The translations under genes and the position numbers were made by a program. Positions 7,199 to 22,618 of a stretch of DNA of 35,464 nucleotides are shown in pieces. The notes under the pieces were generated by a model, which was not told the origin of the DNA, did not search any database, and saw only the letters and a list, made by a program, of their open reading frames with translations. Position 1 is the first letter of the stretch, and each line of letters starts with the position of its first letter. The stretch covers positions 1-35,464 of the forward strand of contig MFCJ01000073.1 of the NCBI GenBank assembly GCA_001775255.1, read 5' to 3'. This stretch comes from Candidatus Dadabacteria bacterium RIFCSPHIGHO2_12_FULL_53_21 (GTDB lineage Bacteria; Desulfobacterota_D; UBA1144; Nemesobacterales; UBA2774).

Positions 7199-8309
7199 TT
7201 AGAGAGTTTTCTCTCCCGCCTGCATCAGAAGAAACGCTTTTATGAATTCGCTCAGGTCGCCGTCAAGAACGGGTTCGACGTTCCCGGTCTCGAATCCGGT
7301 CCTGTGGTCCTTTATCATTCTGTACGGATGGAGCACGTAGGAGCGTATCTGGCTGCCCCACCCGATCTCCTTTTTCGTGGCATGCATCTCGTCCATCTTT
7401 TCCCTCTGTTTCTCCTTCTCGAGCTCGTAGAGCCTCGCTTTCAGGATTTTCATGGCTGTAGCCCGGTTCTGGTGCTGGGAGCGTTCGTTCTGGCAGCTGA
7501 CGACTATCCCCGACGGCATATGGGTTATTCTTATCGCGGAATCCGTCTTGTTAACGTGCTGCCCGCCTGCTCCGCTCGCCCGGTAGGTATCCACCCTCAA
7601 GTCTTTCTCATCTATCTCGACCACTATGCTTTCGTCGATTTCAGGGGATACGAACACCGACGCGAACGAAGTATGCCTTCTCTTATTCGCGTCGAACGGG
7701 GATATCCTGACTAACCTGTGTACCCCGCTTTCACCCTTCAGGTAGCCGAAGGCGTAATCGCCCTTCACGAGGAACGTCGCGCTCTTCATACCGGCCTCGT
7801 CCCCCTCCTGATACTCTATAAATTCAGTTGTAAAACAGTTAAGCTCGGCGTATCTCAGATACATTCGGAGCAGCATCTCGGCCCAGTCCTGGGCTTCGGT
7901 GCCCCCTGCCCCCGCGTTGATCGAGACGATCGCGTTCCTCTCGTCATCGGGCTCGCCGAGTATCCGTTTGAACTCGAGCGTCTCGACCCGGCTCTTGATC
8001 TCCGAGAGCTTCTCCCTGGCTTCCCTCGCTGCCGCCTCGTCTCCCTCCTCGATGGAAAGCTCCTCCAGTACCTCCACGTCCTCGAGGTCGTTCGAGAGTC
8101 TCTTCAGGCCGTCGAGAGCGTTTTTAATACGGGACTGCTCCCTCAGGATTTCCTGCGCCTTCTCGGCGTTGTTCCAGAAACCCTCCTTCCCCGTTATCTC
8201 TTCTAATTCTTTAAGGCGTAAATTCTTTCCGGGGAGGTCAAAGAAACTCTCCCAATACTACGAGTCTCTTCTTAAGTTCCTGTATTTGCTCTTTATTTTC
8301 TCCAAACAT
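7199..8309 (-). CDS. prfB: Peptide chain release factor 2, expressed through a programmed +1 ribosomal frameshift
   Basis: The frame-0 leader from ATG 8309 (SD GGGAGA upstream) reads MFGENKEQIQELKKRLVVLGEFL, then TGA (8238-8240). A +1 shift on CTT TGA C continues DLPGKNLRLKELEEITGKEGFWNN... into the tracked ORF 7199-8077. That ORF carries the RF2 motifs SPF (VRISPFD) and GGQ (SGAGGQHVN). Confidence 0.92.
8237..8243 (-). promoter_or_regulatory. RF2 autoregulatory +1 frameshift site CUU UGA C with an upstream SD-like GGGAGAG
   Basis: Reverse strand reads ...UUG GGA GAG UUU CUU UGA CCU.... This is the same slippery Leu codon plus in-frame UGA-C as the classical prfB site. Confidence 0.9.
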
Positions 8310-8568
8310 GCCGTTCTCCCTTTTTCTGTATCTAAATAATATATGGGTTGAGAATTCAAAAGCAAGGAAAGTTGAATTATCCGTAGTTTTGGGTAGATTC
8401 TTATGGTTTTAACACGGCTTGCATCAGTAAGATATAACACTGGAATATGTCGGCGGGTTTCAGACCGGTACCGCGGGCGAGGCAGGAGCGCCTGCCGGGG
8501 GATCGTAAGGTTCGACAGTCCGGCCTAAAAAATTCGAAAGCAAAATCATAACAGAGGAGAATCAGAAA

Positions 8569-9711
8569 GTGAAAAATTACATATTTACTCCGGGACCGGT
8601 CGCTGTCCCAAGCGAAATTCTCATTGAGATGGCAAAGCCCATCATGCACCACAGGACGAAGGAATTCGAGGCCATCTTTGCGGAGGTAAGAGAGGGGCTT
8701 AAATACATATACGATACGAAGCAGGAGGTATTTGTCCTCGCTGCCTCCGGAACCGGGGCTATGGAGGGGGCCGTGGTGAATACACTTTCCCGCGGCGATA
8801 AGGTGCTCGTCGTCAACGGCGGCAAGTTCGGAGAGAGGTGGGGAAAGATTTGCAAGGCGTTCGGCCTCGACACGCAGGAGCTAATGGTCGAGTGGGGCCA
8901 TTCGGTGGACCCTGCCGATATTGAAAAAGCGCTCGGGAAGGACCCCTCGATTCGAGCCGTTCTGGTACAGGCTAGCGAGACATCTACAGGCGTAATGCAT
9001 CCGACGAAGGAAATCGCCGATATTACCAGGCACAGAGACGATGTCATTCTGATAGTCGACGGCATCACGGGCGTGGGCGTATTCCCGCTTCCTTTCGACG
9101 AGATCGGCATAGACGTCATGGTAGGCGGCTCGCAGAAGGCGTTCATGCTGCCTCCGGGACTGTCGTTCGCCGCCATGAGCGAAAAGGCCTGGAAGTTCAA
9201 TAAGACTTCGGACCTCCCGAAATATTATTTCGATTTCAAAGCCGCACAGAAAAACGCGGAGAAAAACACGACCCCTTATACACCGGCCGTAACCCTGATT
9301 ATCGGACTTGCCGCCGTGCTGAGGAGGTTCAGGGAAGAGGGAAGGGAGAGCATGTTCAAACGTCATGCCAAGCTCTCTCTCGCCATGAGGGAAGGGATGA
9401 AGGCGATAGGGCTTGATATATACGTGAAGGACGTCCCGAGCCCCGCGCTCACTACAGTGATCGCCCCGCCGGAAATAGGCTCCTCGAAGGTTATCAAGGC
9501 GCTCAGCAGCGAATTCGGCATTACTGTCGCCGACGGTCAGGACCAGGCCAAGGGAGTGATATTCAGAGTTTCACACATAGGCGATATAGACAAGACGGAT
9601 ACGTTGTTCTTCATATCGGCCATAGAAAGCGTGCTGCACAAGCTCGGCTACAAGTTCAATTACGGAGCCGGGACGAAAAAGGCGTCTGAAATCTTATTCG
9701 GAGATCAATAG
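8569..9711 (+). CDS. Class-V PLP aminotransferase (serine-pyruvate / alanine-glyoxylate / serine-glyoxylate aminotransferase family)
   Basis: 380 aa. GTG start with SD GAGGAGA 9 nt upstream. N-terminus FTPGPVAVPSEIL...MHHRTKEF, then the Lys motif GGSQKAFMLPPGL. Confidence 0.85.
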   Translation: MKNYIFTPGPVAVPSEILIEMAKPIMHHRTKEFEAIFAEVREGLKYIYDTKQEVFVLAASGTGAMEGAVVNTLSRGDKVLVVNGGKFGERWGKICKAFGLDTQELMVEWGHSVDPADIEKALGKDPSIRAVLVQASETSTGVMHPTKEIADITRHRDDVILIVDGITGVGVFPLPFDEIGIDVMVGGSQKAFMLPPGLSFAAMSEKAWKFNKTSDLPKYYFDFKAAQKNAEKNTTPYTPAVTLIIGLAAVLRRFREEGRESMFKRHAKLSLAMREGMKAIGLDIYVKDVPSPALTTVIAPPEIGSSKVIKALSSEFGITVADGQDQAKGVIFRVSHIGDIDKTDTLFFISAIESVLHKLGYKFNYGAGTKKASEILFGDQ

Positions 9712-9759
9712 AGGGAGCGTTCTCAAGGGCTTTTATTGACCTGAGGCGCCCGGCGGCAG

Positions 9760-10995
9760 TTGAGAAAAATAAGGTTTATCCACCTCTCCGACATTCACAT
9801 CGGCCTCCTCACGCACGGCAGGCTGAACCCGTCGACGGGACATAACACCAGGCTCGAAGACATACTAAAATGTCTCGATCACGTGCTGGAGACGGCCGCC
9901 CGGGAATCCGTCGATCTCATACTCATCGCGGGCGATGTGTTCCACAGGGAGAACCCGCTTCCCGCGGAAGAAATAGAATTCGCGCGCAGGATCGGAAAGG
10001 CGGCCGGTAACGGCGGAGCCCGTGTCGTCATGGTGCTTGGGAACCACGACTACTCGTCTTCCGGCATAGGCGCGTCCGCCGTGGAAATCTTCCCCGCCCT
10101 CGACATCGAGGGCGTGACCATTGCCAGAAAACCCGGAGTGATCGAAGTAAACACGAAAAGCGGTTTGGTCCAGGTCGCCTGCCTCCCGTGGGCGGGCAGG
10201 GGCGCACTGCTCTCAAGGGAAGAGTACAAGTCCCTTTCCTCTCAGGAGCTTCAGGCGGAGATAGAAAGGAGACTGATCGCGATAATCCATGGCCTCGCTG
10301 AGAAGACCCAACCGAAGGACCCTGCCGTATTACTCGCGCACGTGGCGGCTCGGGGTGCGAGGCTATCCGGTACGGAAACGGACACGCTTTCGATCTCGGA
10401 CCCGGTTATACCGGTGACGGTGCTCGCGGACCGCGCATTCCAGTATGTCGCGCTCGGGCACATACACAGGTTCCAGGACCTGAACGAGGGCGACGCCCCC
10501 CCGGTAGTTTATTCGGGAAGCATCGAGAGGATCGATTTCACCGAAGAGAAGGAGAAAAAGGGTTTCGTGCTCGGCGAAATCTCGGAGTCGGAAACGGGAT
10601 GGAAATGCATCTATCAGTTCAGGGAGACCCCCGCGAGGAGATTTATCACTATCGATCTCGGAGAGATTGACGAGGACCGGAGGAAGCTGCCCATCCCGGA
10701 CGGAATTTCTCCCGGGGATATTGAGGGGGCGGTGGTCAGGGTCAGATACGAGGTCGGGGGTCCCGGAGAGGGAGTCGATGAGAGGGAGCTAAGGTCCGCG
10801 TTCGGGGGCGCTCAGACGCTCAAGATCGAGAGGGTCTTCTCCAAACCCAAAAAGACGATGAGGCAGACCGAGCTCTCGAAGACCATGAGCGTGCTCGACG
10901 CGCTCGAGAAGTATGTACAATCGAAGCCCGAGCTTAAGAAGATAGGGGCCGAGATGAAATCCTGCGCGGAGAAGCTGATACGGGAGAGCGAGTGA
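9760..10995 (+). CDS. sbcD: SbcD/Mre11-family exonuclease (calcineurin-like metallophosphoesterase)
   Basis: 411 aa, TTG start. Motifs HLSDIHIG, AGDVFH, LGNHD and GHIH. No sbcC follows. Confidence 0.8.
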   Translation: MRKIRFIHLSDIHIGLLTHGRLNPSTGHNTRLEDILKCLDHVLETAARESVDLILIAGDVFHRENPLPAEEIEFARRIGKAAGNGGARVVMVLGNHDYSSSGIGASAVEIFPALDIEGVTIARKPGVIEVNTKSGLVQVACLPWAGRGALLSREEYKSLSSQELQAEIERRLIAIIHGLAEKTQPKDPAVLLAHVAARGARLSGTETDTLSISDPVIPVTVLADRAFQYVALGHIHRFQDLNEGDAPPVVYSGSIERIDFTEEKEKKGFVLGEISESETGWKCIYQFRETPARRFITIDLGEIDEDRRKLPIPDGISPGDIEGAVVRVRYEVGGPGEGVDERELRSAFGGAQTLKIERVFSKPKKTMRQTELSKTMSVLDALEKYVQSKPELKKIGAEMKSCAEKLIRESE

Positions 10996-11999: not shown

Positions 12000-12293
12000 T
12001 TATTGCGGTCTCTTTCTAAAATGTTTTTCCCGCAACGGGTCGCTGTCGATCTCCGATATCAGGTAGGCTATCTGATACTGGTCGCCCGGATAGAAATAAA
12101 GCTTTATCCCCTGAGGCGTTACAAAATACAGCCCCTCTTTTCTGGTATCATCCGGGAGGTCCACTTCGTAGACCGGAAAGCCTACCGTGCCCGCGCCGAT
12201 GTTGACGGATCTTCTTTCATCCCTCAGTTTTTTGATGCTATCTGCGATCTGCCAGACCTTTGGAAATATCTGACCCTTTACCGTTAGCTTCAT
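12000..12293 (-). CDS. Hypothetical 97-aa protein
   Basis: Intact ORF on the same strand as its neighbours, 60 nt downstream of the previous gene. No recognisable motif. Confidence 0.5.
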   Translation of the reverse strand: MKLTVKGQIFPKVWQIADSIKKLRDERRSVNIGAGTVGFPVYEVDLPDDTRKEGLYFVTPQGIKLYFYPGDQYQIAYLISEIDSDPLREKHFRKRPQ

Positions 12294-12353
12294 TCCCGAC
12301 CCCTCAAGTCCCAGTCCCGCCTGATCAGGGCTTTGGACGGCAGCTTATTCGTT

Positions 12354-12716
12354 TTATATTTTTGATATTTGCACCTTCGTAATTATTCCCACACATGTAA
12401 TAATCATATCCAGCTTTTTGTCCCGCTCATAGACGTACCGCTCTCCGAGCTTATTCCCGCATACCGTGCATTCTCCCGCGCCGCCGTCCGTGTCCCACTT
12501 CCCGCATTGTGCGCAATGCATTCCCTTCTCTTCATACCACGCGAGATGAGAGTATATGAGCTCGTTAAGCCCCCTCTTTCCAAGCGAGTCCGCCCACTCG
12601 GACAGGTCGCGTATTATTTTCGCCCTGATCCTTTCCGGAACTTCTCCGAGTTGCCCCGAATATATCTCTTCTTCGTTCACCAGGATTCTGCAGTAAAAAG
12701 TGGAAAGCTCTTCCAT
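12354..12716 (-). CDS. Hypothetical 120-aa protein with a CxxC-x13-CxxC zinc-ribbon-like motif
   Basis: Contains HCAQCGKWDTDGGAGECTVCGNKL. It starts 13 nt after the stop of the hybrid kinase, so it is probably co-transcribed. Confidence 0.55.
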   Translation of the reverse strand: MEELSTFYCRILVNEEEIYSGQLGEVPERIRAKIIRDLSEWADSLGKRGLNELIYSHLAWYEEKGMHCAQCGKWDTDGGAGECTVCGNKLGERYVYERDKKLDMIITCVGIITKVQISKI

Positions 12717-12729
12717 GTCCTGCCGTGTT

Positions 12730-14646
12730 TTATCCGCTCATGGCCTCTGCTCCAAGGACCCTGGATACCGCGATCTGGATCTGGTCCACGGAGAAAGGTT
12801 TTTTAATGATATTATAAGCGCCCTCGTCCGTGAGCTCGTCGGGGAGCTGTTCTCCCGGCCTTGAGCTTATGATAACCACAGTTGAGTTCGGGTCTATCAT
12901 TTTGATTTCTCTCAGAAGCTCGAGGCCGTTTTTATTAGATATGGAGAAGTCGAGGAACGTAATGTCGAAATGATTCTTTTTTATAAGCTCTATCGCCTGT
13001 TCGCCGCTTTCAGCGGTCATCACGTTATGTCCCGTGCTCGAAAGGCATTCACTCACGATGTCTCTGATGAACTCCTCGTCGTCGATGATCAGCACATTCC
13101 CTTTTCTCCTGAGCTCGATCACCTTCGCGTTCTGGAATTTCTCTGCCGGTTCAGATTCCGGGGCCTTCGAGACGGTTTGTATATTCGGGAGGTGAATCGT
13201 GAATGTGGTGCCCTTGTTGAGCTCGCTCGAGACTTCTATCCTGCCGCCGTGTCTCTCTATGATCGCGTATATGACGGAAAGTCCGAGGCCCGTTCCCGAT
13301 TTCGATCCTTCGCTCTGTTTTGTCGTGAAGAACGGCTCGAATATCCTGGGCAGGTTCTCCGGAGGAATGCCTGCCCCCGTATCCGAGAAGTCGATTCTCA
13401 CATAATTGCCGGCGAGCTTCGTGCTGATGGCTATGGCGCCGCCCTGGGGCATGGCGTGTTTCGAGTTAATTGCCAGATTGAGGAATACCTGCTGTATCTC
13501 CCCGAGGTTCATCCTGATGGCCGGGACCTTCTCGTAGCTCCTGAGTATCCTTATACCTTCCGTCTCGAAGGTGTGTTCTACGAGTCCCAGGGCGTCGTCA
13601 ATGATGCCCTCTATCTGGGCGACCTGGAATTTTTCTCCTTTTTGTCTCGAGAATGAAAGGAGCTTGTTCACTATCTCGACAGCCCTGTCGGAAGCCTTCT
13701 CTATCACCTTGAGGTCTTTCCTGGCGCTGTCCAGGTCCTGTCTCGTGAGCGCGAGGCTCGTATAACCGATAATGCCGGAGAGTATGTTGTTGAATTCGTG
13801 CGCCACTCCGGCCGCCAGCTGTCCTACGCCCGACATCTTCGCCGAGTGTATTAGCTGCGCTTCGAGTTTCTTCTTCTCGGTTATATCCTCTGTCGCGGCT
13901 ATCACGCCGAAGATCTCTTTCGTCTCGAAGTCTATCAGCGGCGACAGCGTCACTTCGAGGAACTTGCTGTCGTGTCTCACTTCGTGTTTCGTCGAATATG
14001 ACGGGTCGCTCAATATCTTGGGCACAATTGTGTCAAAATTAATCCCCTGGAATAACGAGCTCAGTTTTTCACCCGCGCAGCTCCTGCCGAATATCTCTGA
14101 GGTCTTCGGGTTTGCGGTTTCGACGATAAGGTCCCTGTCCGTCGTTATAATGCTCTCGATCGTGCTGTTGAGCGTGTTTTCGAGCTGTCTGTTCCTCTCC
14201 CGGACCTTGAGCTCGAGGTTGGTGTTCAATTCCTTGAGGTCGCTGAGCAGGCGGGTGTTCTCCTTGTAGAGCTCGTACCTGTCGGCGGCATGCTCGATTA
14301 CGCTTCTGAGTTTCCCGTAATCGAGAGGTTTGATCAAATAGTCGAAGGCTCCGTTCTGAACCGCCTCTACCGCTGTTTCCAGCGAAGCGAATCCCGTCAT
14401 GAGTATTACCGGTATGTTGGGGTCTTTCTTCTTGATTTCTTCGAGGAGGTCGATGCCGCTTTTTACAGGCATTTTGATGTCCGAGAGCACCACGTCGAAG
14501 TGGGATGACCTCAGGTACTCGGCTGCTTTCTCGCAGTTGTTGGCGACTACGACTTCGTAACCTTCCTTGGTCAGTATGTCGGATATGATTTTTAATATAA
14601 GCTGCTCGTCGTCAACAACCAGCACCCGCTTCTTCTTGTCGTTCAT
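12730..14646 (-). CDS. Hybrid sensor kinase: REC - coiled coil - PAS - HisKA - HATPase_c - REC
   Basis: Start chosen at MNDKKKRVLVVDDEQ (ATG 14646, SD GGGAGAGG upstream). N-terminal REC has LSDIKMP, LMTGF and YLIKP. PAS-like block ITTDRDLIVETANPKTSEIFG. H-box MSGVGQLAAGVAHEFNNILSGI. ATPase motifs NLAINSKHAM, DTGAGIP, GTGLGLS. C-terminal REC has VLIIDDEEF, FLDFSI, VVIISS and IIKKP. Confidence 0.88.
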   Translation of the reverse strand: MNDKKKRVLVVDDEQLILKIISDILTKEGYEVVVANNCEKAAEYLRSSHFDVVLSDIKMPVKSGIDLLEEIKKKDPNIPVILMTGFASLETAVEAVQNGAFDYLIKPLDYGKLRSVIEHAADRYELYKENTRLLSDLKELNTNLELKVRERNRQLENTLNSTIESIITTDRDLIVETANPKTSEIFGRSCAGEKLSSLFQGINFDTIVPKILSDPSYSTKHEVRHDSKFLEVTLSPLIDFETKEIFGVIAATEDITEKKKLEAQLIHSAKMSGVGQLAAGVAHEFNNILSGIIGYTSLALTRQDLDSARKDLKVIEKASDRAVEIVNKLLSFSRQKGEKFQVAQIEGIIDDALGLVEHTFETEGIRILRSYEKVPAIRMNLGEIQQVFLNLAINSKHAMPQGGAIAISTKLAGNYVRIDFSDTGAGIPPENLPRIFEPFFTTKQSEGSKSGTGLGLSVIYAIIERHGGRIEVSSELNKGTTFTIHLPNIQTVSKAPESEPAEKFQNAKVIELRRKGNVLIIDDEEFIRDIVSECLSSTGHNVMTAESGEQAIELIKKNHFDITFLDFSISNKNGLELLREIKMIDPNSTVVIISSRPGEQLPDELTDEGAYNIIKKPFSVDQIQIAVSRVLGAEAMSG

Positions 14647-17185
14647 CTGCCTCTCCCGCAGTAATATTATAGTTATTTGATGGAAGTTCAATCGTAATTG
14701 TCGTGCCTGACCCTTTCTCGCTCTCAACTATTATCCTGCCTTTGTGTTTTTCTATGATCTTATAGGCTATCGAGAGTCCGAGACCGGTTCCCATATCCTT
14801 CTTCGTAAAGAATGGATCAAAAATCTTAGTGATGTCTTCCTTATCTATTCCCACGCCCGTGTCCTTGAAGTGTATGTAAACCTTGTCGTTGCTCCCGCTC
14901 GCGAATTCGTCCCACCGGGTGGACGTCTTTATCGAAAAGTCCCCGCCCTTCGGCATCGCCTGCACCGCGTTTAGAATGATATTGATGAATACCTGCCAGA
15001 GCTGATTGGGATCCGCCATTATCTGAGGCAGATCCTCGTCGAGGCTCAGCGCGAGGTTTATGTTGTTGTCGGAGAGCTGCTTGCGTACGAGGATAACGAC
15101 GTTCTCGAGTACGCTGTTAATGCCCACACTCTCGAAATAGGGCGGCTCGGCTTTTGAGAACTTGAGCAGGCTGTCTATGAGCCTGTTCGTCCTGTCGATT
15201 TCATGCTTTATATAATCGAGGTACTCTCCCACGACTTCTGTATTTTCTTTGTCCATCATGTAGGTGGAGATGTAGTATCTGGCGCCTTCGATGATGTTGA
15301 GAGGGTTCCTTATCTCGTGTGCAACGCCCGCCGCGAGCTGTCCGATCGCGGACATCTTTTCCGCGTGCACGAGCTGCGCCTGGGTATCTTTGAGCTCCTT
15401 GTTCGTTTTTTCAAGCCTTTTCGCGTAGTCCTCGACGAGTTTGAACGCGAGCGCGTTTTCGAGCGCAATAGCGCTCTGGTTGGCCATGAGCTTGAGCAGA
15501 TTCACGTCACGCGACGTATACGATAGCCCCGACTTCTTATCGCCCAATGCTATAAAACCGATGAGTTGTTTTTTGAAAAAGAGCGGGATGATGAGCGACG
15601 CGTTAAACCTCTCGAATTCCAGCATGAGTCTTTGAGAGTTGTGAAAATACCTCTCGTCCGCTATGAGGTCTTCCTTGAATATCTCGTTTCCGTGGAAATT
15701 GAGCTGCTGTATGAGGATGTTGTCCTCTTCGAGCGTCGTGTCCGAGGAGCTTCGGACCTCGTCTTTTTTAAAATACCGCTCATACGACCCCAGGTCCTGG
15801 TTGTATATGAATACGGAGACCGGGCTCGAGAACATCGTGTTCTCCACGATTTCGATGATCTTGTCGATTATCTTTTCAAGGCTGAGGAGTGAGGTCATTG
15901 CATAGCTCACTTCCTCCACGGTCCCCCTGTAGTCGTATTTCTTTCTGAAGAAGGTCAGGTCCACCAGGTCCTGTATCCGGTTCTTAAGCGGGTTGAGTGC
16001 AATGACGAGGAATCCGCTCAGGATCACGAAGAAAGCGGGGTTCTTCCAGCCGCCGTACTTTGCGAAAGCGACATTGAATCCGAGCACCGTGAGGGCGAAT
16101 ACGCATCCGACTGCCCCGGTGAGGAGCCCGTATGTGAGCGCCTTTTCAATGATGACGTCGATGTCGAAAAGCTTGTGTTTCACTATGGCGTATGCGATCG
16201 ACACGGGGAATATGATCACGGGGAGAGCCATCAGGTTATAGGGCATGCTTATTTTAAAGACCGTGATGCTGGCTACCACCGAAGCCGGGACGAGCAGGCC
16301 GAAAATGCAGCCGAGTAAGATTATTTGTGCGCGTTGTTTTTCAAGCGCCGACGACGGATTCATGTAGGTCATGAGAGAAGAGATCGGGAAAATCATTGTG
16401 CTCAGGACCACGTAAATCCAGCTTACGGTATTAATGTGTTTCCATATATCATATTTGTAAAAGAAGATGAACTGAAGAACGAAAAGCATCGCGGAAATAA
16501 ACAAAAAGAATATCGATACTAAGTTGTGCGTCATTCTCTTCAGCTTGGCGTCAGACGGGAAAATAAACATCAGATATATTCCGAACAGCGGGCTGAAAAT
16601 CCATGAAAAGAAGGTCAGCTGATCGAACAGATAGACGGCCTGTGCGTCGAACGAGCCGACAAACCAAATACATATCGAAGCACAGAAGAGGAAAAACGCC
16701 TTGCTGGCCCTCAGGTACGGCTTCATCTGAAGAACCATCACGCCGATGATCAGGAACACTACGCCTATCACGTATATGATTCCGAACAGGAGAAGCATCT
16801 CCCGCAGCGTCAATCTCTCGACCGGGATCGTAACGTTGAATGAGTCGCCGTTTCTTTCTATTGTGTAATCCACACTTGAACCCACGGGGAGCTTGTCAAT
16901 TACCTCAAATACGTCATTGGGGATTCTGACAGGTATACCGTTTACTTCCTTTATCTTATCCTTGAACCTTTTGAGCATGTCGCCGTTGACTGTTTTCGGC
17001 GAAATATCTGTTATGACGAGGTTTTTATAGAAGAAAAATCCGGGGTAAGGTTTGCCCACCCTGTTTAGACCTAACAGGAAATTCCCTATGCAGAAGATGA
17101 TCAGAACGAACGCAACAATACTGAATACCGATTTCTGGATGTTCGTTCCGTTCCCTTTCGAAATGGATAATTGTCTGTCAACCAT
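14612..17185 (-). CDS. Polytopic membrane sensor histidine kinase: TM - PDZ-like - multi-TM block - GAF - HisKA - HATPase_c
   Basis: 857 aa. One N-terminal TM is followed by a PDZ-like segment (VNGIPVRIPNDVFEVIDKLPVGSSVDYTIERNG). About 8 hydrophobic helices follow, then a GAF-like block (LIIPLFFKKQLIGFIALGDKK...AIALENA). H-box MSAIGQLAAGVAHEIRNPLN. ATPase motifs NIILNAVQAM, DTGVGI, GTGLGLSIA. It starts 4 nt after the stop of the upstream gene, and its 3' end overlaps the next gene by 35 nt. Confidence 0.88.
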   Translation of the reverse strand: MVDRQLSISKGNGTNIQKSVFSIVAFVLIIFCIGNFLLGLNRVGKPYPGFFFYKNLVITDISPKTVNGDMLKRFKDKIKEVNGIPVRIPNDVFEVIDKLPVGSSVDYTIERNGDSFNVTIPVERLTLREMLLLFGIIYVIGVVFLIIGVMVLQMKPYLRASKAFFLFCASICIWFVGSFDAQAVYLFDQLTFFSWIFSPLFGIYLMFIFPSDAKLKRMTHNLVSIFFLFISAMLFVLQFIFFYKYDIWKHINTVSWIYVVLSTMIFPISSLMTYMNPSSALEKQRAQIILLGCIFGLLVPASVVASITVFKISMPYNLMALPVIIFPVSIAYAIVKHKLFDIDVIIEKALTYGLLTGAVGCVFALTVLGFNVAFAKYGGWKNPAFFVILSGFLVIALNPLKNRIQDLVDLTFFRKKYDYRGTVEEVSYAMTSLLSLEKIIDKIIEIVENTMFSSPVSVFIYNQDLGSYERYFKKDEVRSSSDTTLEEDNILIQQLNFHGNEIFKEDLIADERYFHNSQRLMLEFERFNASLIIPLFFKKQLIGFIALGDKKSGLSYTSRDVNLLKLMANQSAIALENALAFKLVEDYAKRLEKTNKELKDTQAQLVHAEKMSAIGQLAAGVAHEIRNPLNIIEGARYYISTYMMDKENTEVVGEYLDYIKHEIDRTNRLIDSLLKFSKAEPPYFESVGINSVLENVVILVRKQLSDNNINLALSLDEDLPQIMADPNQLWQVFINIILNAVQAMPKGGDFSIKTSTRWDEFASGSNDKVYIHFKDTGVGIDKEDITKIFDPFFTKKDMGTGLGLSIAYKIIEKHKGRIIVESEKGSGTTITIELPSNNYNITAGEADERQEEAGAGC

Positions 17186-17189
17186 TCGT

Positions 17190-19949
17190 TTATTCGCTTA
17201 TTGCCGGAATTTTTGAATACATCTCCCAGTGGAGGTCGACCTTTCCGCCCAGGTTCTCAACTATGCGCCGCGAGCCGAGGTTGTCTTCCAGAACCCATGT
17301 GCCGGCCACCTTCTCGTACCCGTTCCCGATCATCGCCTCACAGACCCTGCTGAGGAGGACGGTGCCGATCCTCCTTCCCTTGAATTCGTCCATGAGACCC
17401 ATGATCATTAATACGCCTTCCCTGATCCCCCTTAACCGGAGGGGCAGCGTTACGAGCTTGTGGGGTTTCAGCTCCCCGTTTAATCCCCTGAATACGGAAG
17501 CGTATTGCGGGAATCCCCCTATGAAACCTATTGCTTCGCCCCCGGACTCCGCGATAAGCCAGTATTCGGGATCGATCAGACTCTTGAACTCGTCCGCGAT
17601 CTCTATGAACTCATCGGCGTCGAACGGGACATTGCCCCAGAGCTGAGCGAGGGAATTGTTGAATATCCTGACCACGCTCCTGACCTCGTTCGCCCAGTCG
17701 GATTTGTTCATCCGCCTTATCTTTACATCCGGCAGCTCCGATTCCCGGGAGTATTTCATTATCGCTTTCACGTTATCGGGGGATTTAAGGTCTATCGTGT
17801 AATGCAGGAGTTTTTTAACCGGCCCGAACCCCGCATTCGTGAAATAGTCGTGGTAGTAGGGCTGTGTGTATACCTGGAGGAAGGACGGTATCTTCCCGTA
17901 GTTGCTCGAGAGCAGGCCGCCGCCGAAGAGTCCGAATATCCCGTTTGCCGGTCCTTGTATCTCCGTACACCCCTCTCTTACGAGAAATTCCCCGGCTTTG
18001 GCAAGGAGAAGGCCGACCGCTTCATCTTTGTCCGGGAGGGCTTCGAAGAACCCCAAGAACCCGACGTTGGTATCGTGATAACGGTTGTAGTAATTGTCTA
18101 TGAACGCGCTTACGGTGCCGACTATCTCTCCTCTCTCCTCGACAACGAACCTCTTCCCGTAAACCTTCCTGAAGTAGAAATAATCGTTCGAAATTAGCTT
18201 AACGTGGTCTTTTATAAGGAAGTAGGGGACCCACGCCGGGTAATCCTTATAAACCTTCCATGAGAACCTGACTGACCTTTCGATCTCGTCTTTGGAGGAT
18301 ATTTCTCTCACGGTGTATTTTTCGTCTTCGGGCACGCTGAGTGAGACCGGCCTGCCTATTATCCCGAATTCCCTCCCCAGCTTCTCGACCACTTCGAGCG
18401 TCCTGTCGATGTCTTCGCGGGTGTGTGTGGCCATAAGGCTGAACCTGAACCTCTCCTGCCCCTTAGGCACGGCAGGGTGCGGTATCGCGTTTACGTATAT
18501 CCCTTCCTCGTGGAACCTCTTGCTCATCTTTTTCTGCGTGAGCTCGTCGCCGGTCATTACCGGGATGATCGCCGACTCGGTCTGTCCCGTGTTGAATCCC
18601 AGGGATTTCAGGCTTTCCTTCATGTACTTGATATTTTTCCAGAGGTTCTCGTGGAGAGACTTGTCGGTTTCCATTACTTCGATCGCGGCTAGTACGGAGG
18701 CTGCGACCGAGGGGGGGAAATTGGACGAGAAGAAAAAGGACCTGGTGTAGTATCTGAGGTAGCTTACTACTTCTTTTGTCGAGGCTATGAAGCCGCCGAT
18801 GCCGCCCAGGGATTTGCTCAGCGTGCCCATTATGATATCTATCTCGCCGGGCTTCATTTTGAAATGGCTGGGCGTCCCCTTTCCCCTGTCCCCTATGACA
18901 CCCGTGGCGTGAGCTTCGTCCACCATGACCTTGGCGCCGTACCTGTGGGCGGTCTCCGCGATCTGCCGGAGCGGGGCTATGTCCCCGTCCATGCTGTATA
19001 CGCCGTCCACTATCACGATCTTTCCTTTAAAATTGTCTTTATTTCTTTTTAATACGTTTTCGAGGCTCCCGACGTCCGAGTGTTTGAACGTCCTGAACGT
19101 GCCCGTAGACAGCATGCAGCCGTCTATAATGCTCGCGTGAGCGAGTCTGTCTATGACCGCGAGGTCTTCGCTCTTTACGAGGGCCTGTATGGATCCGAGG
19201 TTCGTGACGTAGCCGCTCGGAAAGATTATCGCGTCCTCGGCTCCCTTGAGCTCAGCGAGTTTCATTTCCAGCTGCCTGTGTATGTCGAACGACCCTGCCA
19301 GGAGCGGGACCGAGCCTGCGCCCGCACCGTATTTATCGATATTTTCTTTGGCTATTTTCATGACCCTCGGATGAGATGTGAGCCCGAGGTAGTTGTTGCT
19401 CCCCATCATGATCATCTCTTTTTTCTTTCCGGTAAAGTCGTCGTCGATGATCACTCTGTGCGCCGAGGGCGACGCCAGGGGTCTTCTGTACCGTATATAC
19501 CCCTTCGACGCCATGTCTAGTCCGTACTGCCAGAATACCTCTGCCTTTTTAAACAGGTCCTCGTCCGGTATATCTGCGAAATCGGATAGATAATAGTCGT
19601 CGGAATTGAGAGTGTGTTTACTCTTTTCGATGTAGCTCTGTAATTTTGCCCTGTCCGAATCGTATATGTTTATGAATTCGACCCCGATACCGTGCTCGCC
19701 CGTACCGTTCGTTTCGATCCTCTTTACTTCACAGTAGGCCTTGACGGGAAATGCCCCGGATAAATCACATTCGAGAAGGAGTTTTGTACCAGGCTTGAAT
19801 TCGTCTTCAGTTTGTATGAATAGTCCTTTGTAAGAGAGGTCTTTTGCCAAGCCGATCATCATGCCGGAATTTTTTGAATAGACATGAAAATTTACAGGGA
19901 TCCTTTCATGGCTCCTCCGGTCTTTTGATTCCCTGATAATTATCCCCAT
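17190..19949 (-). CDS. Three-domain fusion: PilZ (c-di-GMP receptor) - alpha-oxoamine synthase (class-II PLP aminotransferase; BioF/Kbl/SPT/CqsA family) - large GNAT-type N-acyltransferase region
   Basis: 919 aa.
- Residues ~8-100 carry both PilZ signatures: RxxxR (RRSHER), then DxSxxG (DLSYKG) 22 aa later.
- Residues ~150-535 carry alpha-oxoamine synthase motifs: MGSNNYLGL, DEAHATGVIG, SMDGD and the PLP-lysine motif GTLSKSLGGIGGF.
- Residues ~545-919 are a separate region ending in GNAT motif A (FKGRRIGTVLLSRVCEAM...GYEKV).
SD GAGGGGG lies upstream of the ATG. Confidence 0.85.
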   Translation of the reverse strand: MGIIIRESKDRRSHERIPVNFHVYSKNSGMMIGLAKDLSYKGLFIQTEDEFKPGTKLLLECDLSGAFPVKAYCEVKRIETNGTGEHGIGVEFINIYDSDRAKLQSYIEKSKHTLNSDDYYLSDFADIPDEDLFKKAEVFWQYGLDMASKGYIRYRRPLASPSAHRVIIDDDFTGKKKEMIMMGSNNYLGLTSHPRVMKIAKENIDKYGAGAGSVPLLAGSFDIHRQLEMKLAELKGAEDAIIFPSGYVTNLGSIQALVKSEDLAVIDRLAHASIIDGCMLSTGTFRTFKHSDVGSLENVLKRNKDNFKGKIVIVDGVYSMDGDIAPLRQIAETAHRYGAKVMVDEAHATGVIGDRGKGTPSHFKMKPGEIDIIMGTLSKSLGGIGGFIASTKEVVSYLRYYTRSFFFSSNFPPSVAASVLAAIEVMETDKSLHENLWKNIKYMKESLKSLGFNTGQTESAIIPVMTGDELTQKKMSKRFHEEGIYVNAIPHPAVPKGQERFRFSLMATHTREDIDRTLEVVEKLGREFGIIGRPVSLSVPEDEKYTVREISSKDEIERSVRFSWKVYKDYPAWVPYFLIKDHVKLISNDYFYFRKVYGKRFVVEERGEIVGTVSAFIDNYYNRYHDTNVGFLGFFEALPDKDEAVGLLLAKAGEFLVREGCTEIQGPANGIFGLFGGGLLSSNYGKIPSFLQVYTQPYYHDYFTNAGFGPVKKLLHYTIDLKSPDNVKAIMKYSRESELPDVKIRRMNKSDWANEVRSVVRIFNNSLAQLWGNVPFDADEFIEIADEFKSLIDPEYWLIAESGGEAIGFIGGFPQYASVFRGLNGELKPHKLVTLPLRLRGIREGVLMIMGLMDEFKGRRIGTVLLSRVCEAMIGNGYEKVAGTWVLEDNLGSRRIVENLGGKVDLHWEMYSKIPAISE

Positions 19950-20064: not shown

Positions 20065-20160
20065 CTTCGGTAACCCAACCGCCATAGACCCTGCCAAATA
20101 GTCCTTAGGCTTGTGGCTTTGCGTCCTACCCTTTCGGATAGTTTGCCGTTTCGGAAGGTC
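20065..20160 (-). promoter_or_regulatory. c-di-GMP-I (GEMM-I) riboswitch aptamer
   Basis: Reverse strand: GACCUUCCGAAACGGCAAACUAUCCGAAAGGGUAGGACGCAAAGCCACAAGCCUAAGGACUAUUUGGCAGGGUCUAUGGCGGUUGGGUUACCGAAG.
- Conserved GEMM-I blocks are GGCAAAC, GGACGCAAAGCC and GGGUUACCGA.
- The hairpin CUAUCC-GAAA-GGGUAG is capped by a GAAA tetraloop.
- The second helix carries both halves of the 11-nt tetraloop receptor (CCUAAG / UAUGG).
- It lies about 115 nt upstream of the ATG at 19949. Confidence 0.9.
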
Positions 20161-20176: not shown

Positions 20177-20205
20177 AGTTTAGTGCAATTTGTTTTTTGT
20201 TTCAA
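20177..20205 (-). promoter_or_regulatory. Candidate sigma70-type promoter for the riboswitch-led operon
   Basis: Reverse strand reads TTGAAA-N17-TAAACT, ending about 16 nt upstream of the aptamer. Sequence match only. Confidence 0.4.
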
Positions 20206-21634: not shown

Positions 21635-22618
21635 TCAGAGATAACCGTTTTCCTTAAACCACTTTACGGTGCTTTCTATCGTTTGCTCGAGAGGCCTGGG
21701 GGAGAACCCCAGCTCCCGCACCGCCTTTGAATTATCGAAATACCAGAAGTGCTTCGACCCCTTTACGGAGTCTATGTCCATGGCGACGTAGTTGGGGGCG
21801 GATATGCCGAGTATACGCTCGGCGATATAGGCGCCCATGTAAGCGAGCGGGTAGGGTATCTTCATCCTGGGCCTCGGGATTCCCGTTACCTTCTCTATAA
21901 CCTCGAAGAGCTCTTTGATCGTGATGTTGCGGTTGCTCAGTATGTAGCGCTCCCCGAGCCTGCCCTTCTCGGCCGCGAGGAGGTGACCCAGGGCCACGTC
22001 TTCGGCGTCGACAACGTTAATGCCTCCGTCCGTATATCCCGGAAGCCGCCCCTTGCAGTACCAGAGTATAAATCCGGAGGTCGAGACGTAGACGTCTCCT
22101 GCGCCTATCACTATGGAAGGGTTAACGATTACGAGCGGCAGGCCTTTCCTGAAAAATTTCAGGGCTTCCTCTTCGGCATAATATTTCGATTTTATATACT
22201 GGATGTCAGTGCTTTCGGGGTCAAACGGGGTCTCTTCGTCGGCTACCCCCTTCCCGGGTTTTAACCCTATCGCCGCTACGCTGCTGGTATATACGGCTTT
22301 CTTAACCCCTGCCTCGAGAGCCGCCGTGAATACGTTGTTCGTTCCCTTGACGTTAATATCTTCCATCTTTTTATAGTCGGCCTGCTTGAACGATACGATT
22401 CCCGCCGCGTGGTAAATCGTATCGCAGCCTTCTATCGCTTTCCTGATGGAGTCTATATCGGTTACGTCTCCGTAAACCCTCTCGGCATTTAGATCGTCGA
22501 TATTTATCGTTTTACTGGTCTTTCTGAGGAGTATCCTTAACTTGTCTCCCCTCTCCGCCAGTTTTCTCGCTATGTGAGAGCCCAGGAGGCCGGTCGCCCC
22601 TGTAACCAGTGTAGCCAT
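21635..22618 (-). CDS. NAD(P)-dependent epimerase/dehydratase-family SDR (HpnA / dihydroflavonol-reductase-like)
   Basis: 327 aa. Rossmann motif VTGATGLLGSHI, then YTSS and a YxxxK catalytic pair (YIKSK). Confidence 0.8.
   Translation of the reverse strand: MATLVTGATGLLGSHIARKLAERGDKLRILLRKTSKTINIDDLNAERVYGDVTDIDSIRKAIEGCDTIYHAAGIVSFKQADYKKMEDINVKGTNNVFTAALEAGVKKAVYTSSVAAIGLKPGKGVADEETPFDPESTDIQYIKSKYYAEEEALKFFRKGLPLVIVNPSIVIGAGDVYVSTSGFILWYCKGRLPGYTDGGINVVDAEDVALGHLLAAEKGRLGERYILSNRNITIKELFEVIEKVTGIPRPRMKIPYPLAYMGAYIAERILGISAPNYVAMDIDSVKGSKHFWYFDNSKAVRELGFSPRPLEQTIESTVKWFKENGYL

Follow-up and report, generated by a model that had tools for sequence, protein, structure and literature searches.

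A riboswitch-preceded PilZ–alpha-oxoamine synthase–tandem GNAT fusion gene in Candidatus Dadabacteria, a possible c-di-GMP-controlled lipid-forming system

The locus and its fusion gene

The window analysed here is the whole 35,464-nucleotide stretch of contig MFCJ01000073.1 from Candidatus Dadabacteria bacterium RIFCSPHIGHO2_12_FULL_53_21. It carries a gene that joins a PilZ domain, an alpha-oxoamine synthase (AOS) and a tandem GNAT acyltransferase in one polypeptide, with a riboswitch in its leader and two sensor kinase genes downstream. The features considered are the following:

17190..19949 (-), PilZ–AOS–tandem GNAT fusion gene, 919 aa, stop codon included
19626..19922 (-), PilZ domain, residues 10–108, Pfam PF07238, with RxxxR (R12..R16) and DxSxxG (D37..G42)
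18357..19517 (-), AOS domain, residues ~145–531, PLP lysine K379, Pfam PF00155 (E 3e-59)
17193..18329 (-), tandem GNAT acyltransferase domain, residues 541–919, bCerS-like family (AlphaFold, Foldseek)
20066..20157 (-), c-di-GMP-I (GEMM-I) riboswitch aptamer, Rfam RF01051, in the 5' leader, 116 nt upstream of the ATG
20177..20205 (-), sigma-70-like promoter candidate TTGAAA-17-TAAACT, ~20 nt upstream of the riboswitch, consensus match only
14612..17185 (-), membrane sensor histidine kinase, 857 aa: TM1, extracytoplasmic loop of ~90 aa, ~9 more TM segments, GAF, HisKA, HATPase
12730..14646 (-), hybrid kinase REC-PAS-HisKA-HATPase-REC, start uncertain (ATG 14646 or GTG 14625)
21635..22618 (-), HpnA-like NAD-dependent epimerase/SDR, 327 aa, subthreshold match to TIGR03466 (336 bits, cut-off 367.65)
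12354..12716 (-), conserved protein of 120 aa downstream of both kinase genes, CxxC...CxxC pattern, membership in the system undetermined

A preliminary description had read the fusion gene as a single 919-aa ORF with PilZ, AOS and acyltransferase parts, and this is confirmed by the ORF list (one ORF with an ATG start), Pfam, AlphaFold and Foldseek. The HMM domain scan matched PilZ (residues 10–108, E 1.7e-13, 51.2 bits against a cut-off of 22.5), Aminotran_1_2 (residues 178–520, E 3.3e-59) and Acetyltransf_1 (residues 787–901, E 3.3e-11, in two stretches). All motifs quoted in that description were located, namely RSHER at residue 12, DLSYKG at 37, SMDGD at 319, DEAHATG at 344, GTLSKSLG at 375 (with Lys379) and KGRRIGT at 857, and the junctions it had placed near 19500 and 18330 fit the starts of the AOS (about residue 145, nt 19517) and GNAT (about residue 541, nt 18329) parts. 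The same holds for its claims that both c-di-GMP-binding signatures of PilZ are intact and that the AOS core is complete with its PLP lysine. Its view of the C-terminal ~375 aa as a region ending in GNAT motif A stands for the motif itself and had to be revised for the extent, since the C-terminal ~380 residues as a whole fold as a tandem GNAT.

As to how widespread the fusion is, the tri-domain architecture is common to at least 38 protein clusters, formed at 90% identity (P0001–P0038) and spanning 99% to 43% identity. These homologues are 917–935 aa long and come from independent samples and sources, on contigs that include ones of 3.1 Mb and 629 kb, and four tri-domain loci have identical synteny. 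In 30 tri-domain proteins conservation is unbroken across both domain junctions; Arg12, Arg16 and Gly42 of PilZ, the PLP-binding Lys379, and W573, P575 and A800 of the GNAT part are invariant, and Ser39 of PilZ is kept in at least 90%. The family is rare: among 1.84 billion, ~10 representatives remain at 50% identity. The preliminary description did not recognise the architecture as characterised, and our literature search found no publication on it.

Domains, leader and gene neighbourhood

The PilZ signatures RxxxR and (D/N)xSxxG are kept in nearly all tri-domain and two-domain homologues down to 43% identity, the motifs being degenerate in a few relatives (P0072, P0074, P0083); in another relative, P0113, a REC domain stands where PilZ would be. 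The AlphaFold model of this part is a beta-barrel with a C-terminal helix, and the inter-domain arrangement is uncertain (pTM 0.50), so that no docking site is evident. Control of the enzyme by c-di-GMP through PilZ is thus an inference from the conserved binding motifs; there are no binding data, and gating has not been shown.

In an alignment with Kbl, the catalytic residues H271, D344, H347, T376, K379 and R502 of the AOS domain correspond to H136, D210, H213, T241, K244 and R368. The NCBIfam models of the BioF/Kbl/Spt family match it at 385–413 bits (BioF/Kbl subfamily 413, Kbl 399, BioF 390, Spt 385), and no equivalog cut-off is reached, that of Spt included. The solved structures closest to it are Thermus AOS/KBL 7poa, S. 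multivorum SPT 8guh and E. coli KBL 1fc4. By neighbour joining (NJ), the PilZ-AOS enzymes form a sister clade to the Spt-like one and do not fall within it; they group with Spt-like and FAAL-ACP-AOS enzymes, and E. coli Kbl and BioF are placed outside. Since the domain scores no better for Spt and falls outside the Spt-like clade, its amino acid and acyl chain length remain undetermined. A spirochaete relative (L006) has REC and HK genes around it, and the acyl-AMP ligase and ACP on its flanks point to fatty acyl groups as substrates. AOS-GNAT fusions without PilZ exist independently, P0092 and P0096 lying within the Spt-like clade, and at least 12 metagenome loci carry one.

The C-terminal part, with its motifs PAWVP (571–575) and WVLEDN (885–890), is modelled by AlphaFold as a tandem GNAT (pLDDT 87, pTM 0.86), which confirms an acyltransferase fold. 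Its top Foldseek matches are the tandem-GNAT structures 5kf1, 7q3a, 2wpw and 1ozp (TM 0.6–0.7, E down to 4e-16), and a sequence search of the PDB gave no match for this part. Free-standing homologues of 370–390 aa were found at E 3e-47 to 8e-18, only 25–32% identical to the fused domain. They lie directly downstream of an Spt-like AOS gene in 57 of 80 genome loci, which cover more than 15 phyla and include Myxococcus; 49 loci have an Epimerase-type SDR no more than 4 kb away, and 48 have both partners. The adjoining AOS genes score best as serine palmitoyltransferase (514–521 bits against ~380–395 for BioF/Kbl), and one family member, P0149, has close relatives conserved across Sphingomonadaceae. 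This AOS-GNAT-SDR arrangement is the spt-bcerS-cerR layout (PMC11087976, PMC11334938), in which the reactions of Spt and bCerS follow one another in the cytoplasm and 3-ketosphinganine is acylated by bCerS prior to reduction (PMC11087976). The GNAT family adjoining Spt-like genes is therefore probably bCerS, an assignment that rests on synteny and taxonomy without a direct comparison with CCNA_01212 / CC_1154. The proposal that an amino-ketone synthase and an N-acyltransferase perform here the chemistry of bacterial ceramide synthesis gains support from these neighbourhoods, the chemistry itself being inferred. N-acylation is not obligate in the wider PilZ-AOS family, because many two-domain relatives have no acyltransferase nearby (L004, L008, L098) and others (L003, L005) have a FemAB_like acyltransferase, for which hhalign showed no homology to the tandem GNAT.

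The riboswitch is the sole Rfam match in the window and covers the whole model 1–87 (80.2 bits, E 2e-14, gathering score 35). We take its ligand contacts to be G20, A47 and C92 in Vc2 numbering, presumably the canonical c-di-GMP set, with G20 and not the A20 of cGAMP-sensing variants. The orthologous genes of L001 and L002 likewise have RF01051 upstream, and in L100 the leader scores better as the GGC variant of the same clan, RF03167, so that a c-di-GMP-I clan riboswitch is present in all four tri-domain loci examined; in L098 it lies directly 5' of the kinase genes. Folding of the leader gave z = -0.63, an uninformative value. Evidence for the promoter is weak, because it is a consensus match only and sigma-70-like sites in the region are no more numerous than the shuffled expectation.

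The 857-aa kinase gene begins 4 nt past the fusion-gene stop codon, and the hybrid kinase gene overlaps its 3' end. This gene order is kept across the family. Orthologues of the 857-aa kinase gene directly follow the PilZ-AOS gene in L001, L002, L004, L008 and L100; in L003 and L098 they are displaced downstream by one to three genes. The hybrid kinase holds the same position in L001–L005, L008, L098 and L100. The pair accompanies PilZ-AOS genes in all of these eight loci, and it, not the acyltransferase, is their most constant partner, being kept where an acyltransferase is missing (L004, L008) or the other neighbours differ (L005). Neither the riboswitch nor the co-transcribed kinases figured in the preliminary description, and both alter the picture of the system.

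The HpnA-like SDR lies two genes upstream of the fusion gene, with aroC in between. SDRs of this type occur near PilZ-AOS genes in L002, L003, L004, L008 and L100 and adjoin the gene in L098, and the window SDR is 41% identical to one located between GNAT and AOS genes (L090). It is a candidate for the reductase of the 3-keto product, the functional link being inferred. The 120-aa CxxC protein has no family in Pfam or NCBIfam; it is 54% identical to the product of L002 17666..18010, and similar-sized genes follow the kinases in L001, L004 and L008. No ACP or acyl-ACP synthetase gene was found within the window. In L005 a FadL/Toluene_X outer-membrane channel for hydrophobic compounds adjoins the PilZ-AOS gene, and in L003 and L005 the genes on either side of it encode an FAD amine oxidase, an O-methyltransferase and the FemAB_like transferase. 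Much of the neighbourhood represents lineage-wide synteny.

Proposed mechanism and rival readings

We suggest, with somewhat more confidence than doubt, that the locus encodes a c-di-GMP-controlled two-step lipid-forming enzyme making an N-acyl alpha-amino ketone similar to 3-keto-ceramide. In the first step the PLP-dependent AOS, recognised by sequence, would join an amino acid with acyl-CoA or acyl-ACP and release CO2 to give an alpha-amino ketone, for example 3-ketosphinganine from serine and a long acyl chain; this chemistry is inferred from the family. In the second, the fused tandem GNAT may N-acylate the amine to a 3-keto-dihydroceramide-like N-acyl amino ketone, as judged from fold, homology and gene neighbourhood. 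More weakly, one can suggest that the nearby HpnA-like SDR reduces the ketone. The riboswitch, whose presence is established and whose regulatory direction is not, would set the expression of the enzyme and of both kinases, and PilZ would render the enzyme responsive to c-di-GMP. The kinases, as part of the same conserved module, might either detect the membrane lipid product or relay a related signal. The best reading is that c-di-GMP acts at both the RNA and the protein level of one enzyme, the protein level being inferred. Against a ceramide-type product stand the position of the AOS outside the Spt-like clade, the low identity of the GNAT part, the separation of the SDR by aroC, the lineage-wide nature of much of the synteny, the dispensability of N-acylation in the wider family and the lack of an ACP or acyl-ACP synthetase gene in the window.

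AOS-type autoinducer synthases such as CqsA and LqsA are encoded beside the membrane kinases CqsS and LqsS. The present arrangement mirrors these gene pairs, and it is possible, though we hold it only tentatively, that the fusion protein is a signal synthase encoded with its cognate receptor, its product being a hydrophobic intercellular or envelope signal and not a bulk membrane lipid. The ~10-TM kinase would sense this product and relay via the hybrid kinase, and c-di-GMP would decide the timing of synthesis; ceramide-type chemistry is compatible with this, only the role of the product being different. The constancy of the kinase pair, even without an acyltransferase, its distance of 4 nt from the fusion gene and the L098 riboswitch directly ahead of the kinase genes all fit, as do the ~10 TM segments, which suit a membrane-borne ligand, the FadL/Toluene_X channel of L005 and the REC and HK genes around the spirochaete relative. 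The REC domain in the place of PilZ in P0113 implies that the AOS acts as a signalling output, and the rarity of the family suits a specialised signal better than a core lipid. However, the AOS does not reach the CqsA/LqsA cut-off (209 bits, with 428 required) and is no orthologue, CqsA structures scoring only 124 bits. Nor does the kinase resemble CqsS: PrsK, the specific model closest to it, gives 117 bits with a cut-off of 300. Moreover, adjacency is no proof of sensing, since the kinases could regulate the synthase or be co-regulated with it, and much of the synteny comes from related Thermodesulfobacteriota.

Some PilZ domains do not bind c-di-GMP, and the domain could be merely an interaction or structural module, which would leave the riboswitch as the only c-di-GMP link of the locus. 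The degenerate motifs of three relatives and the uncertain placement of PilZ in the model, with no evident docking site, agree with this. We consider it unlikely, because the signatures persist in nearly all members and R12, R16 and G42 are invariant in the tri-domain proteins. As the gene also carries a riboswitch for this ligand, it is simplest to assume that the domain, too, has a c-di-GMP role.

Little credence can be given to short-chain chemistry, in which a Kbl-like or broad-range AOS would combine acetyl-CoA or a similarly short acyl-CoA with glycine or alanine, and the GNAT would acetylate the aminoacetone-type product to a water-soluble N-acetyl amino ketone or a pyrazine/pyrazinone precursor, without any lipid. 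The highest NCBIfam scores are indeed those of the BioF/Kbl subfamily and Kbl, the broad-specificity enzyme 7poa is the nearest solved structure, acetyltransferases are the best Foldseek matches of the GNAT part, and the oxidase, methyltransferase and FemAB_like genes at L003/L005 would suit pyrazinone-type chemistry. Nevertheless, the AOS groups with Spt-like and FAAL-ACP-AOS enzymes and not with E. coli Kbl, the partner gene tdh is absent, the GNAT family is tied to Spt-like genes and Sphingomonadaceae, and an acyl-AMP ligase and ACP flank the spirochaete relative. Finally, an artefactual fusion by assembly chimera or gene-merging frameshift has nothing in its favour except that free-standing versions of each part exist, and it is ruled out, as firmly as such data allow, by the recurrence of the same three-domain protein on independent contigs in at least 38 clusters, the shared synteny and the continuous conservation over both junctions. 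The lipid-forming reading remains the preferred one, and the locus points to an undescribed link of c-di-GMP to an N-acyl amino-ketone lipid or signal.

Comparison with known systems

A close parallel is offered by the Caulobacter crescentus ceramide pathway, Spt/bCerS/CerR (CC_1162/CC_1154/CC_1164; PMC11087976, PMC11324152, PMC11334938). Both have an AOS and then a GNAT-type N-acyltransferase, and in both an NAD-dependent Epimerase-type reductase is close by; the GNAT part is homologous to the family found beside Spt-like genes in 57 of 80 genomes. Unlike in Caulobacter, the first two enzymes form one polypeptide, whose AOS reaches no Spt cut-off and branches outside the Spt-like clade, and genes for an ACP or acyl-ACP synthetase are missing. 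The window adds PilZ, a c-di-GMP riboswitch and two kinases, none of them reported for ceramide genes.

Alpha-hydroxyketone quorum sensing by CqsA/CqsS (Vibrio) and LqsA/LqsS (Legionella) resembles the locus in having an AOS-family gene beside a multi-pass sensor kinase and a phosphorelay component. The differences are that the window AOS is non-orthologous by the score given above, that the kinase architecture is ~10 TM plus GAF, and that the synthase is fused to an N-acyltransferase, while c-di-GMP input is no feature of CqsA/LqsA.

In Mycobacterium tuberculosis Rv0032 (BioF2) the domain order is reversed, since its extra domain, presumably a 'BioF2-like' GNAT-fold acetyltransferase domain (Pfam PF13480), is N-terminal; the acetyltransferase family is also a different one. 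This protein, an Spt-like AOS with an extra domain and of unknown function (PMC12910592), has neither PilZ nor a riboswitch and is confined to the M. tuberculosis complex.

The GNAT part shares two GNAT halves per chain with 5kf1 (C. acetobutylicum glucosamine N-acetyltransferase), 7q3a (MAB_4324), 2wpw (a clavulanate-pathway protein) and 1ozp (mycothiol synthase MshD), but sequence identity is only 11–14% and the substrates differ. The leader resembles GEMM-I riboswitches (Vibrio cholerae Vc2, many Geobacter copies; RF01051) in its full-model 80-bit match, whereas the orthologous leader of L100 scores better as RF03167. To our knowledge, a PilZ-AOS-GNAT enzyme with kinases is not among the described c-di-GMP-I riboswitch targets.

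Cellulose synthase BcsA and the alginate co-polymerase Alg44 are examples of PilZ-regulated enzymes: a PilZ domain bearing RxxxR and DxSxxG is joined to a biosynthetic enzyme or acts as its partner, and c-di-GMP turns on product formation post-translationally. The fusion protein likewise carries PilZ with both motifs on a biosynthetic enzyme. However, BcsA and Alg44 are membrane glycosyltransferase systems for exopolysaccharide, whereas here PilZ is N-terminal and its partners are a soluble PLP enzyme and an acyltransferase, with an inferred lipid-type small-molecule product.

Architecture of the fusion gene and its kinase neighbours

The protein under study is encoded by one reading frame:

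17190..19949, (-) strand: fusion gene, a single ORF of 919 aa with an ATG start

Three Pfam domains were matched in it, namely PilZ (PF07238) at residues 10-108 (E 1.7e-13, 51.2 bits against a cut-off of 22.5), Aminotran_1_2 (PF00155) at 178-520 (E 3.3e-59) and Acetyltransf_1 at 787-901 (E 3.3e-11), and according to the structural model its C-terminal part is a tandem GNAT. The composition proposed in the preliminary description (PilZ, alpha-oxoamine synthase (AOS) and a C-terminal acyltransferase) was thus upheld, and all the motifs quoted there from the sequence were located in the protein where they had been placed. The same three domains occur in at least 38 protein clusters (P0001-P0038, 911-954 aa, from 99% to 43% identity), which come from independent samples and from contigs of up to 3.1 Mb. 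An assembly chimera, which had been named as the outcome that would refute the fusion, is therefore ruled out, since the architecture recurs on independent contigs. In an alignment of 30 tri-domain proteins, R12, R16, G42, K379 and several C-terminal residues are invariant, and S39 is kept in at least 90% of them.

Both c-di-GMP-binding motifs of the PilZ domain, RxxxR (R12-S-H-E-R16) and (D/N)xSxxG (D37-L-S-Y-K-G42), are present in the fusion protein and are retained in nearly all the tri-domain and most of the two-domain (PilZ-AOS) relatives. The PilZ-related model TIGR02266 gave 43 bits, which is under its cut-off of 68.7. In one protein from an Armatimonadetes MAG (P0113, 544 aa), a REC domain at residues 4-121 stands instead of PilZ before a related AOS, suggesting that this AOS branch was repeatedly wired as a signalling output.

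The gene for an 857-aa kinase begins 4 nt past the fusion stop codon and is overlapped by the next gene, which encodes a REC-PAS-HK-REC hybrid kinase. In the 857-aa protein, an extracytoplasmic loop (about 90 aa) separates the first TM segment from about nine others, and the GAF, HisKA and HATPase domains follow; it was rejected as a PrsK protein, having scored 117 bits where 300 are required. The order fusion–kinase–kinase is kept in three loci of tri-domain relatives (L001, L002 and L100), and the kinase pair is also found downstream of the two-domain genes in L003, L004, L008 and L098. The locus of a PilZ-AOS-FemAB_like protein (L005), with different surroundings, contains a hybrid kinase together with a HATPase protein of 646 aa that has no GAF or HisKA domain according to Pfam. 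The neighbours of the spirochaete relative encode an acyl-AMP ligase, an ACP, a FemAB_like transferase, a REC protein and a kinase.

Several other genes of the window were recorded:

12354..12716, (-) strand: small conserved protein with a CxxC...CxxC pattern, downstream of the kinases, 54% identical to its L002 counterpart
about 12040..12330, (-) strand: conserved ORF of about 97 aa, just 3' of the CxxC protein gene
3794..5836, (+) strand: PAS-GAF-PAS-HisKA_2-HATPase cytoplasmic sensor kinase of 680 aa, with no evident link to the fusion locus
21635..22618: HpnA-like SDR, recurring near PilZ-AOS genes and directly adjacent to one in L098
22679..23455, (+) strand: 258-aa ORF between the SDR gene and dnaB, with no Pfam or NCBIfam family

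In L001, L004 and L008, too, the kinases are followed by a gene similar in size to that of the CxxC protein; no known family was found for this protein or for the 97-aa ORF. In L001, a 218-aa gene without a recorded Pfam hit is located between dnaB and aroC. In L098, the PilZ-AOS gene has no riboswitch upstream, and an SDR gene in the opposite orientation lies between it and the kinases.

A protein of 605-615 aa is encoded directly upstream of the two-domain genes (L004 6101..7930, L008 6098..7945, L098 4615..6432), and it is missing from the tri-domain loci. No Pfam family was found for it beyond a weak beta-barrel signal resembling Alginate_exp (E 0.07), and the idea that it stands in for the acyltransferase is unsupported.

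The c-di-GMP-I riboswitch of the leader

The Rfam scan of the whole window returned a single match:

20066..20157, (-) strand: c-di-GMP-I riboswitch (RF01051, 80.2 bits against a gathering threshold of 35, E 2e-14, full model 1-87)

It lies inside the 560-nt leader of the fusion gene, on the coding strand, 116 nt before the ATG. Upstream of the orthologues, RF01051 was matched in L001 (65% identity, 81 bits) and L002 (47% identity, 53.9 bits), and the leader in L100 (78% identity; 4576..4671, (+) strand) scores better with RF03167, the c-di-GMP-I-GGC variant of the same clan (66.6 bits against a gathering threshold of 59). Consequently, a riboswitch of this clan is present in the leader in all four tri-domain loci examined, the window included.

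No riboswitch was detected in four two-domain loci (L003, L004, L005 and L008), even at E <= 0.05. A match in the two-domain locus L098 (RF01051, 55.7 bits; 9738..9825, (+) strand) is located directly ahead of the GAF kinase gene; since it adjoins the kinases and not the PilZ-AOS gene, the kinase pair may be the primary target of the riboswitch.

In the five aligned aptamers, including that of L100, we found an unpaired G before the first helix, an A as the first one following the GC pair, and the C of ACCG. These nucleotides presumably correspond to the canonical G20/A47/C92 set (Vc2 numbering) and not to the A20 of the cGAMP-sensing variants. The riboswitch is closely preceded by a weak promoter-like site; the promoter and terminator scan and the folding of the leader gave no signal above chance, with no clear terminator or anti-SD structure.

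Relationships of the synthase and acyltransferase domains

The AOS domain can be assigned to its family by the profile match, the PLP lysine and the full catalytic His/Asp/His/Arg set: H271, D344, H347, T376, K379 and R502 align with H136, D210, H213, T241, K244 and R368 of E. coli Kbl. Within the family, it falls below every NCBIfam equivalog cut-off tested, for Spt (serine palmitoyltransferase), Kbl, BioF, ALAS and the CqsA type alike.

Scores of the fusion AOS with NCBIfam models (bits; cut-off in brackets)
BioF/Kbl subfamily: 413 (535)
Kbl: 398.9 (460)
BioF: 389.6 (426.45)
Spt NF047600: 384.7 (640)
Spt NF047599: 344.6 (500)
Spt NF047603: 290 (670)
ALAS: 289.3 (338.55)
CqsA-type: 209.4 (428)

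The closest solved structures are the Thermus AOS/KBL (7poa), the S. multivorum SPT (8guh) and the E. coli KBL (1fc4), with CqsA far behind. In the AOS tree, the PilZ-AOS clade, which includes the tri-domain, two-domain, FemAB-fused and spirochaete forms together with FAAL-ACP-AOS proteins, is sister to the Spt-like enzymes adjoining the GNAT family and lies outside them; Kbl and BioF of E. coli are outside both clades. This is a neighbour-joining distance tree without bootstrap, and we provisionally regard the fusion AOS as a relative of the Spt-like group and not its member. The sequence does not reveal which amino acid and which acyl substrate it uses.

No PDB relative of the C-terminal part was found by sequence, and searches with the domain and with the profile from an alignment of its free-standing homologues (A2) returned chance or weak single-GNAT matches only. 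The AlphaFold model, built with another such alignment (A1), reached pLDDT 87 and pTM 0.86, and Foldseek placed it among tandem-GNAT enzymes (TM 0.6-0.7, 11-14% identity), the top one being the glucosamine N-acetyltransferase of C. acetobutylicum (5kf1, E 4e-16), accompanied by MAB_4324 (7q3a), the clavulanate-pathway protein 2wpw and MshD (1ozp). Because of this placement, the whole 380-aa C-terminal region is predicted to be a two-lobed GNAT acyltransferase.

A search with residues 541-919 revealed free-standing proteins of 370-390 aa (25-32% identity, E 3e-47 to 8e-18), annotated as “GNAT superfamily” or unnamed; there is no NCBIfam family for the GNAT part or for these homologues, and hence no curated name. 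The genes of the two closest ones are located directly 3' of a gene for an AOS of about 392 aa and beside an Epimerase/3Beta_HSD-type SDR gene, with a fatty-acid desaturase gene in one of the loci. The genome scan, limited to one genome per species, gave at least 600 matches, of which the best 80 were examined. These 80 loci belong to Zixibacteria, Bacteroidota/Ignavibacteria, Nitrospirota, Gemmatimonadota, Planctomycetota, Acidobacteriota, Anaerolineae, Cloacimonadota, Spirochaetia, Desulfuromonadaceae and Myxococcus.

Gene neighbourhood of the free-standing GNAT genes (best 80 of at least 600 loci)
AOS gene within 3 kb: 61/80
AOS gene immediately upstream on the same strand: 57/80
SDR gene within 4 kb: 49/80
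both AOS and SDR genes nearby: 48/80

The AOS proteins adjoining the free-standing GNATs score best as Spt (514-521 bits on NF047600 versus about 380-395 for BioF/Kbl). In the published model, Spt and the bacterial ceramide synthase (bCerS) act in the cytoplasm, where bCerS acylates 3-ketosphinganine before reduction by CerR (PMC11087976), and the three genes are “often found clustered” (PMC11334938). The layout AOS–GNAT–SDR in the free-standing loci matches that of these ceramide genes, and for this reason the GNAT family very probably represents bCerS; the inference is drawn from gene layout and taxonomy, with no direct comparison with the Caulobacter protein (CCNA_01212 / CC_1154). Among the properties expected of bCerS, the GNAT family of the fusion shows the GNAT fold, a genetic link with spt and cerR, and occurrence in organisms that produce sphingolipids.

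Sphingomonadaceae are the classic sphingolipid bacteria, and the close relatives of one member of the free-standing family (P0149) all belong to this group. In its genome of about 4 Mb (L092-L095, 8729..12608), the GNAT gene is located between FA_desaturase-family and UDP-glucose 6-dehydrogenase genes, and no spt gene was found within 10 kb of it; this gene set would fit glucuronosyl-ceramide synthesis. In Myxococcus dinghuensis (L039), the GNAT-family gene has as its neighbour an Spt-like gene (7278..8936, (+) strand) of 552 aa by the ORF list, whose C-terminus extends about 120 aa beyond that of a typical Spt and whose start codon is uncertain in this high-GC genome.

Fusions of AOS and tandem GNAT without PilZ (about 800 aa) are fairly common in metagenomes and were found in at least 12 loci (L104, L105, L108, L109, L113, L118, L119, L120, L130, L146, L158 and L163), with an SDR adjoining the gene in four of them. 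Among such proteins (P0089, P0092 and P0096), P0092 and P0096 branch within the Spt-like clade of the neighbour-joining tree, so the AOS-GNAT fusion apparently arose more than once. The PilZ-less forms are natural fusions of the Spt-bCerS type, and they bear on the debated step order of bacterial ceramide synthesis.

The SDR of the window shares 41% identity with one encoded within an AOS-GNAT cluster (L090), and no ACP or acyl-ACP synthetase gene was found in the window. The FemAB_like transferase of the relatives could not be explained as a diverged copy of the window GNAT (hhalign probability 0.5%), and by sequence comparison it is a non-orthologous replacement. In L003 (9722..13428) and L005 (5176..11307), the PilZ-AOS relatives occur together with an FAD amine oxidase, an O-methyltransferase (Methyltransf_2) and, fused or separate, a FemAB_like (PF04339) transferase, a set that would be in keeping with chemistry of the N-aminoacyl amino-ketone or pyrazinone type; directly upstream in L005 is a gene for a FadL/Toluene_X outer-membrane channel.

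Proposed function and comparison with known systems

We consider it reasonably probable that the fusion protein makes an alpha-amino ketone and then N-acylates it within one polypeptide, although this chemistry is inferred. The AOS domain would form the alpha-amino ketone, the GNAT domain would N-acylate it into a 3-keto-ceramide-like molecule, and the nearby SDR may reduce this product. c-di-GMP would control both the synthesis of the protein through the riboswitch and its activity through PilZ, for which there are no binding data. The complete chain, in which c-di-GMP by both routes switches on an Spt-like/bCerS-like fusion, its ceramide-type N-acyl amino ketone is the ligand of the co-transcribed kinase with about ten TM segments, and this kinase relays through the hybrid kinase, is offered only tentatively and should be treated as doubtful.

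The role of the product can be read in two ways. The constant presence of a many-pass membrane kinase as partner, as well as the rarity of the family (about 10 representatives at 50% identity among 1.84 billion proteins), argues for a signal with this kinase as its receptor. The bCerS/Spt ancestry together with the SDR argues for a membrane lipid. Short-chain chemistry of the enzyme and a PilZ domain not binding c-di-GMP are minor alternatives.

c-di-GMP controls motility, exopolysaccharide, adhesins and transcription. Direct two-level control by this messenger over a synthase of sphingolipid-type lipids or small molecules on one gene would be new; our literature search found no paper on a PilZ-AOS protein or on c-di-GMP control of sphingolipid-type synthesis. 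If true, the proposal would introduce a new class of PilZ-regulated enzymes, with the first PilZ shown to control a PLP enzyme directly, and a new axis from second messenger through lipid to two-component system; a possible new two-component system for sensing lipids becomes testable through the tight conserved coupling to the many-pass kinase.

Whether acylation precedes reduction in bacterial ceramide synthesis is debated (PMC11087976, PMC11324152). The AOS-acyltransferase fusions with and without PilZ serve as Rosetta-stone evidence for the two cytoplasmic steps following directly on one another, and the natural fusion would, if the proposal holds, represent genetic evidence for acylation ahead of reduction. 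Euxinic waters are rich in sphingolipid-like lipids of anaerobic Desulfobacterota, the producers of which have only been inferred (PMC11334938); a regulated paralogous pathway in this phylum would matter for interpreting those lipid records.

All the parts of this system are of known kinds, and it is their combination and the inferred double c-di-GMP input that are new. The nearest fused precedent for the PilZ-AOS-GNAT protein is Rv0032 (BioF2) of M. tuberculosis, whose Spt-like AOS carries an additional domain at the N-terminus and whose function is unknown (PMC12910592). The CqsA/CqsS pair provides an analogy in layout only: its synthase is not orthologous to the fusion AOS (209.4 bits versus the cut-off of 428), and what the two systems share is an AOS gene adjoining a membrane sensor kinase gene, as the fusion gene adjoins that of the GAF kinase with about ten TM segments.
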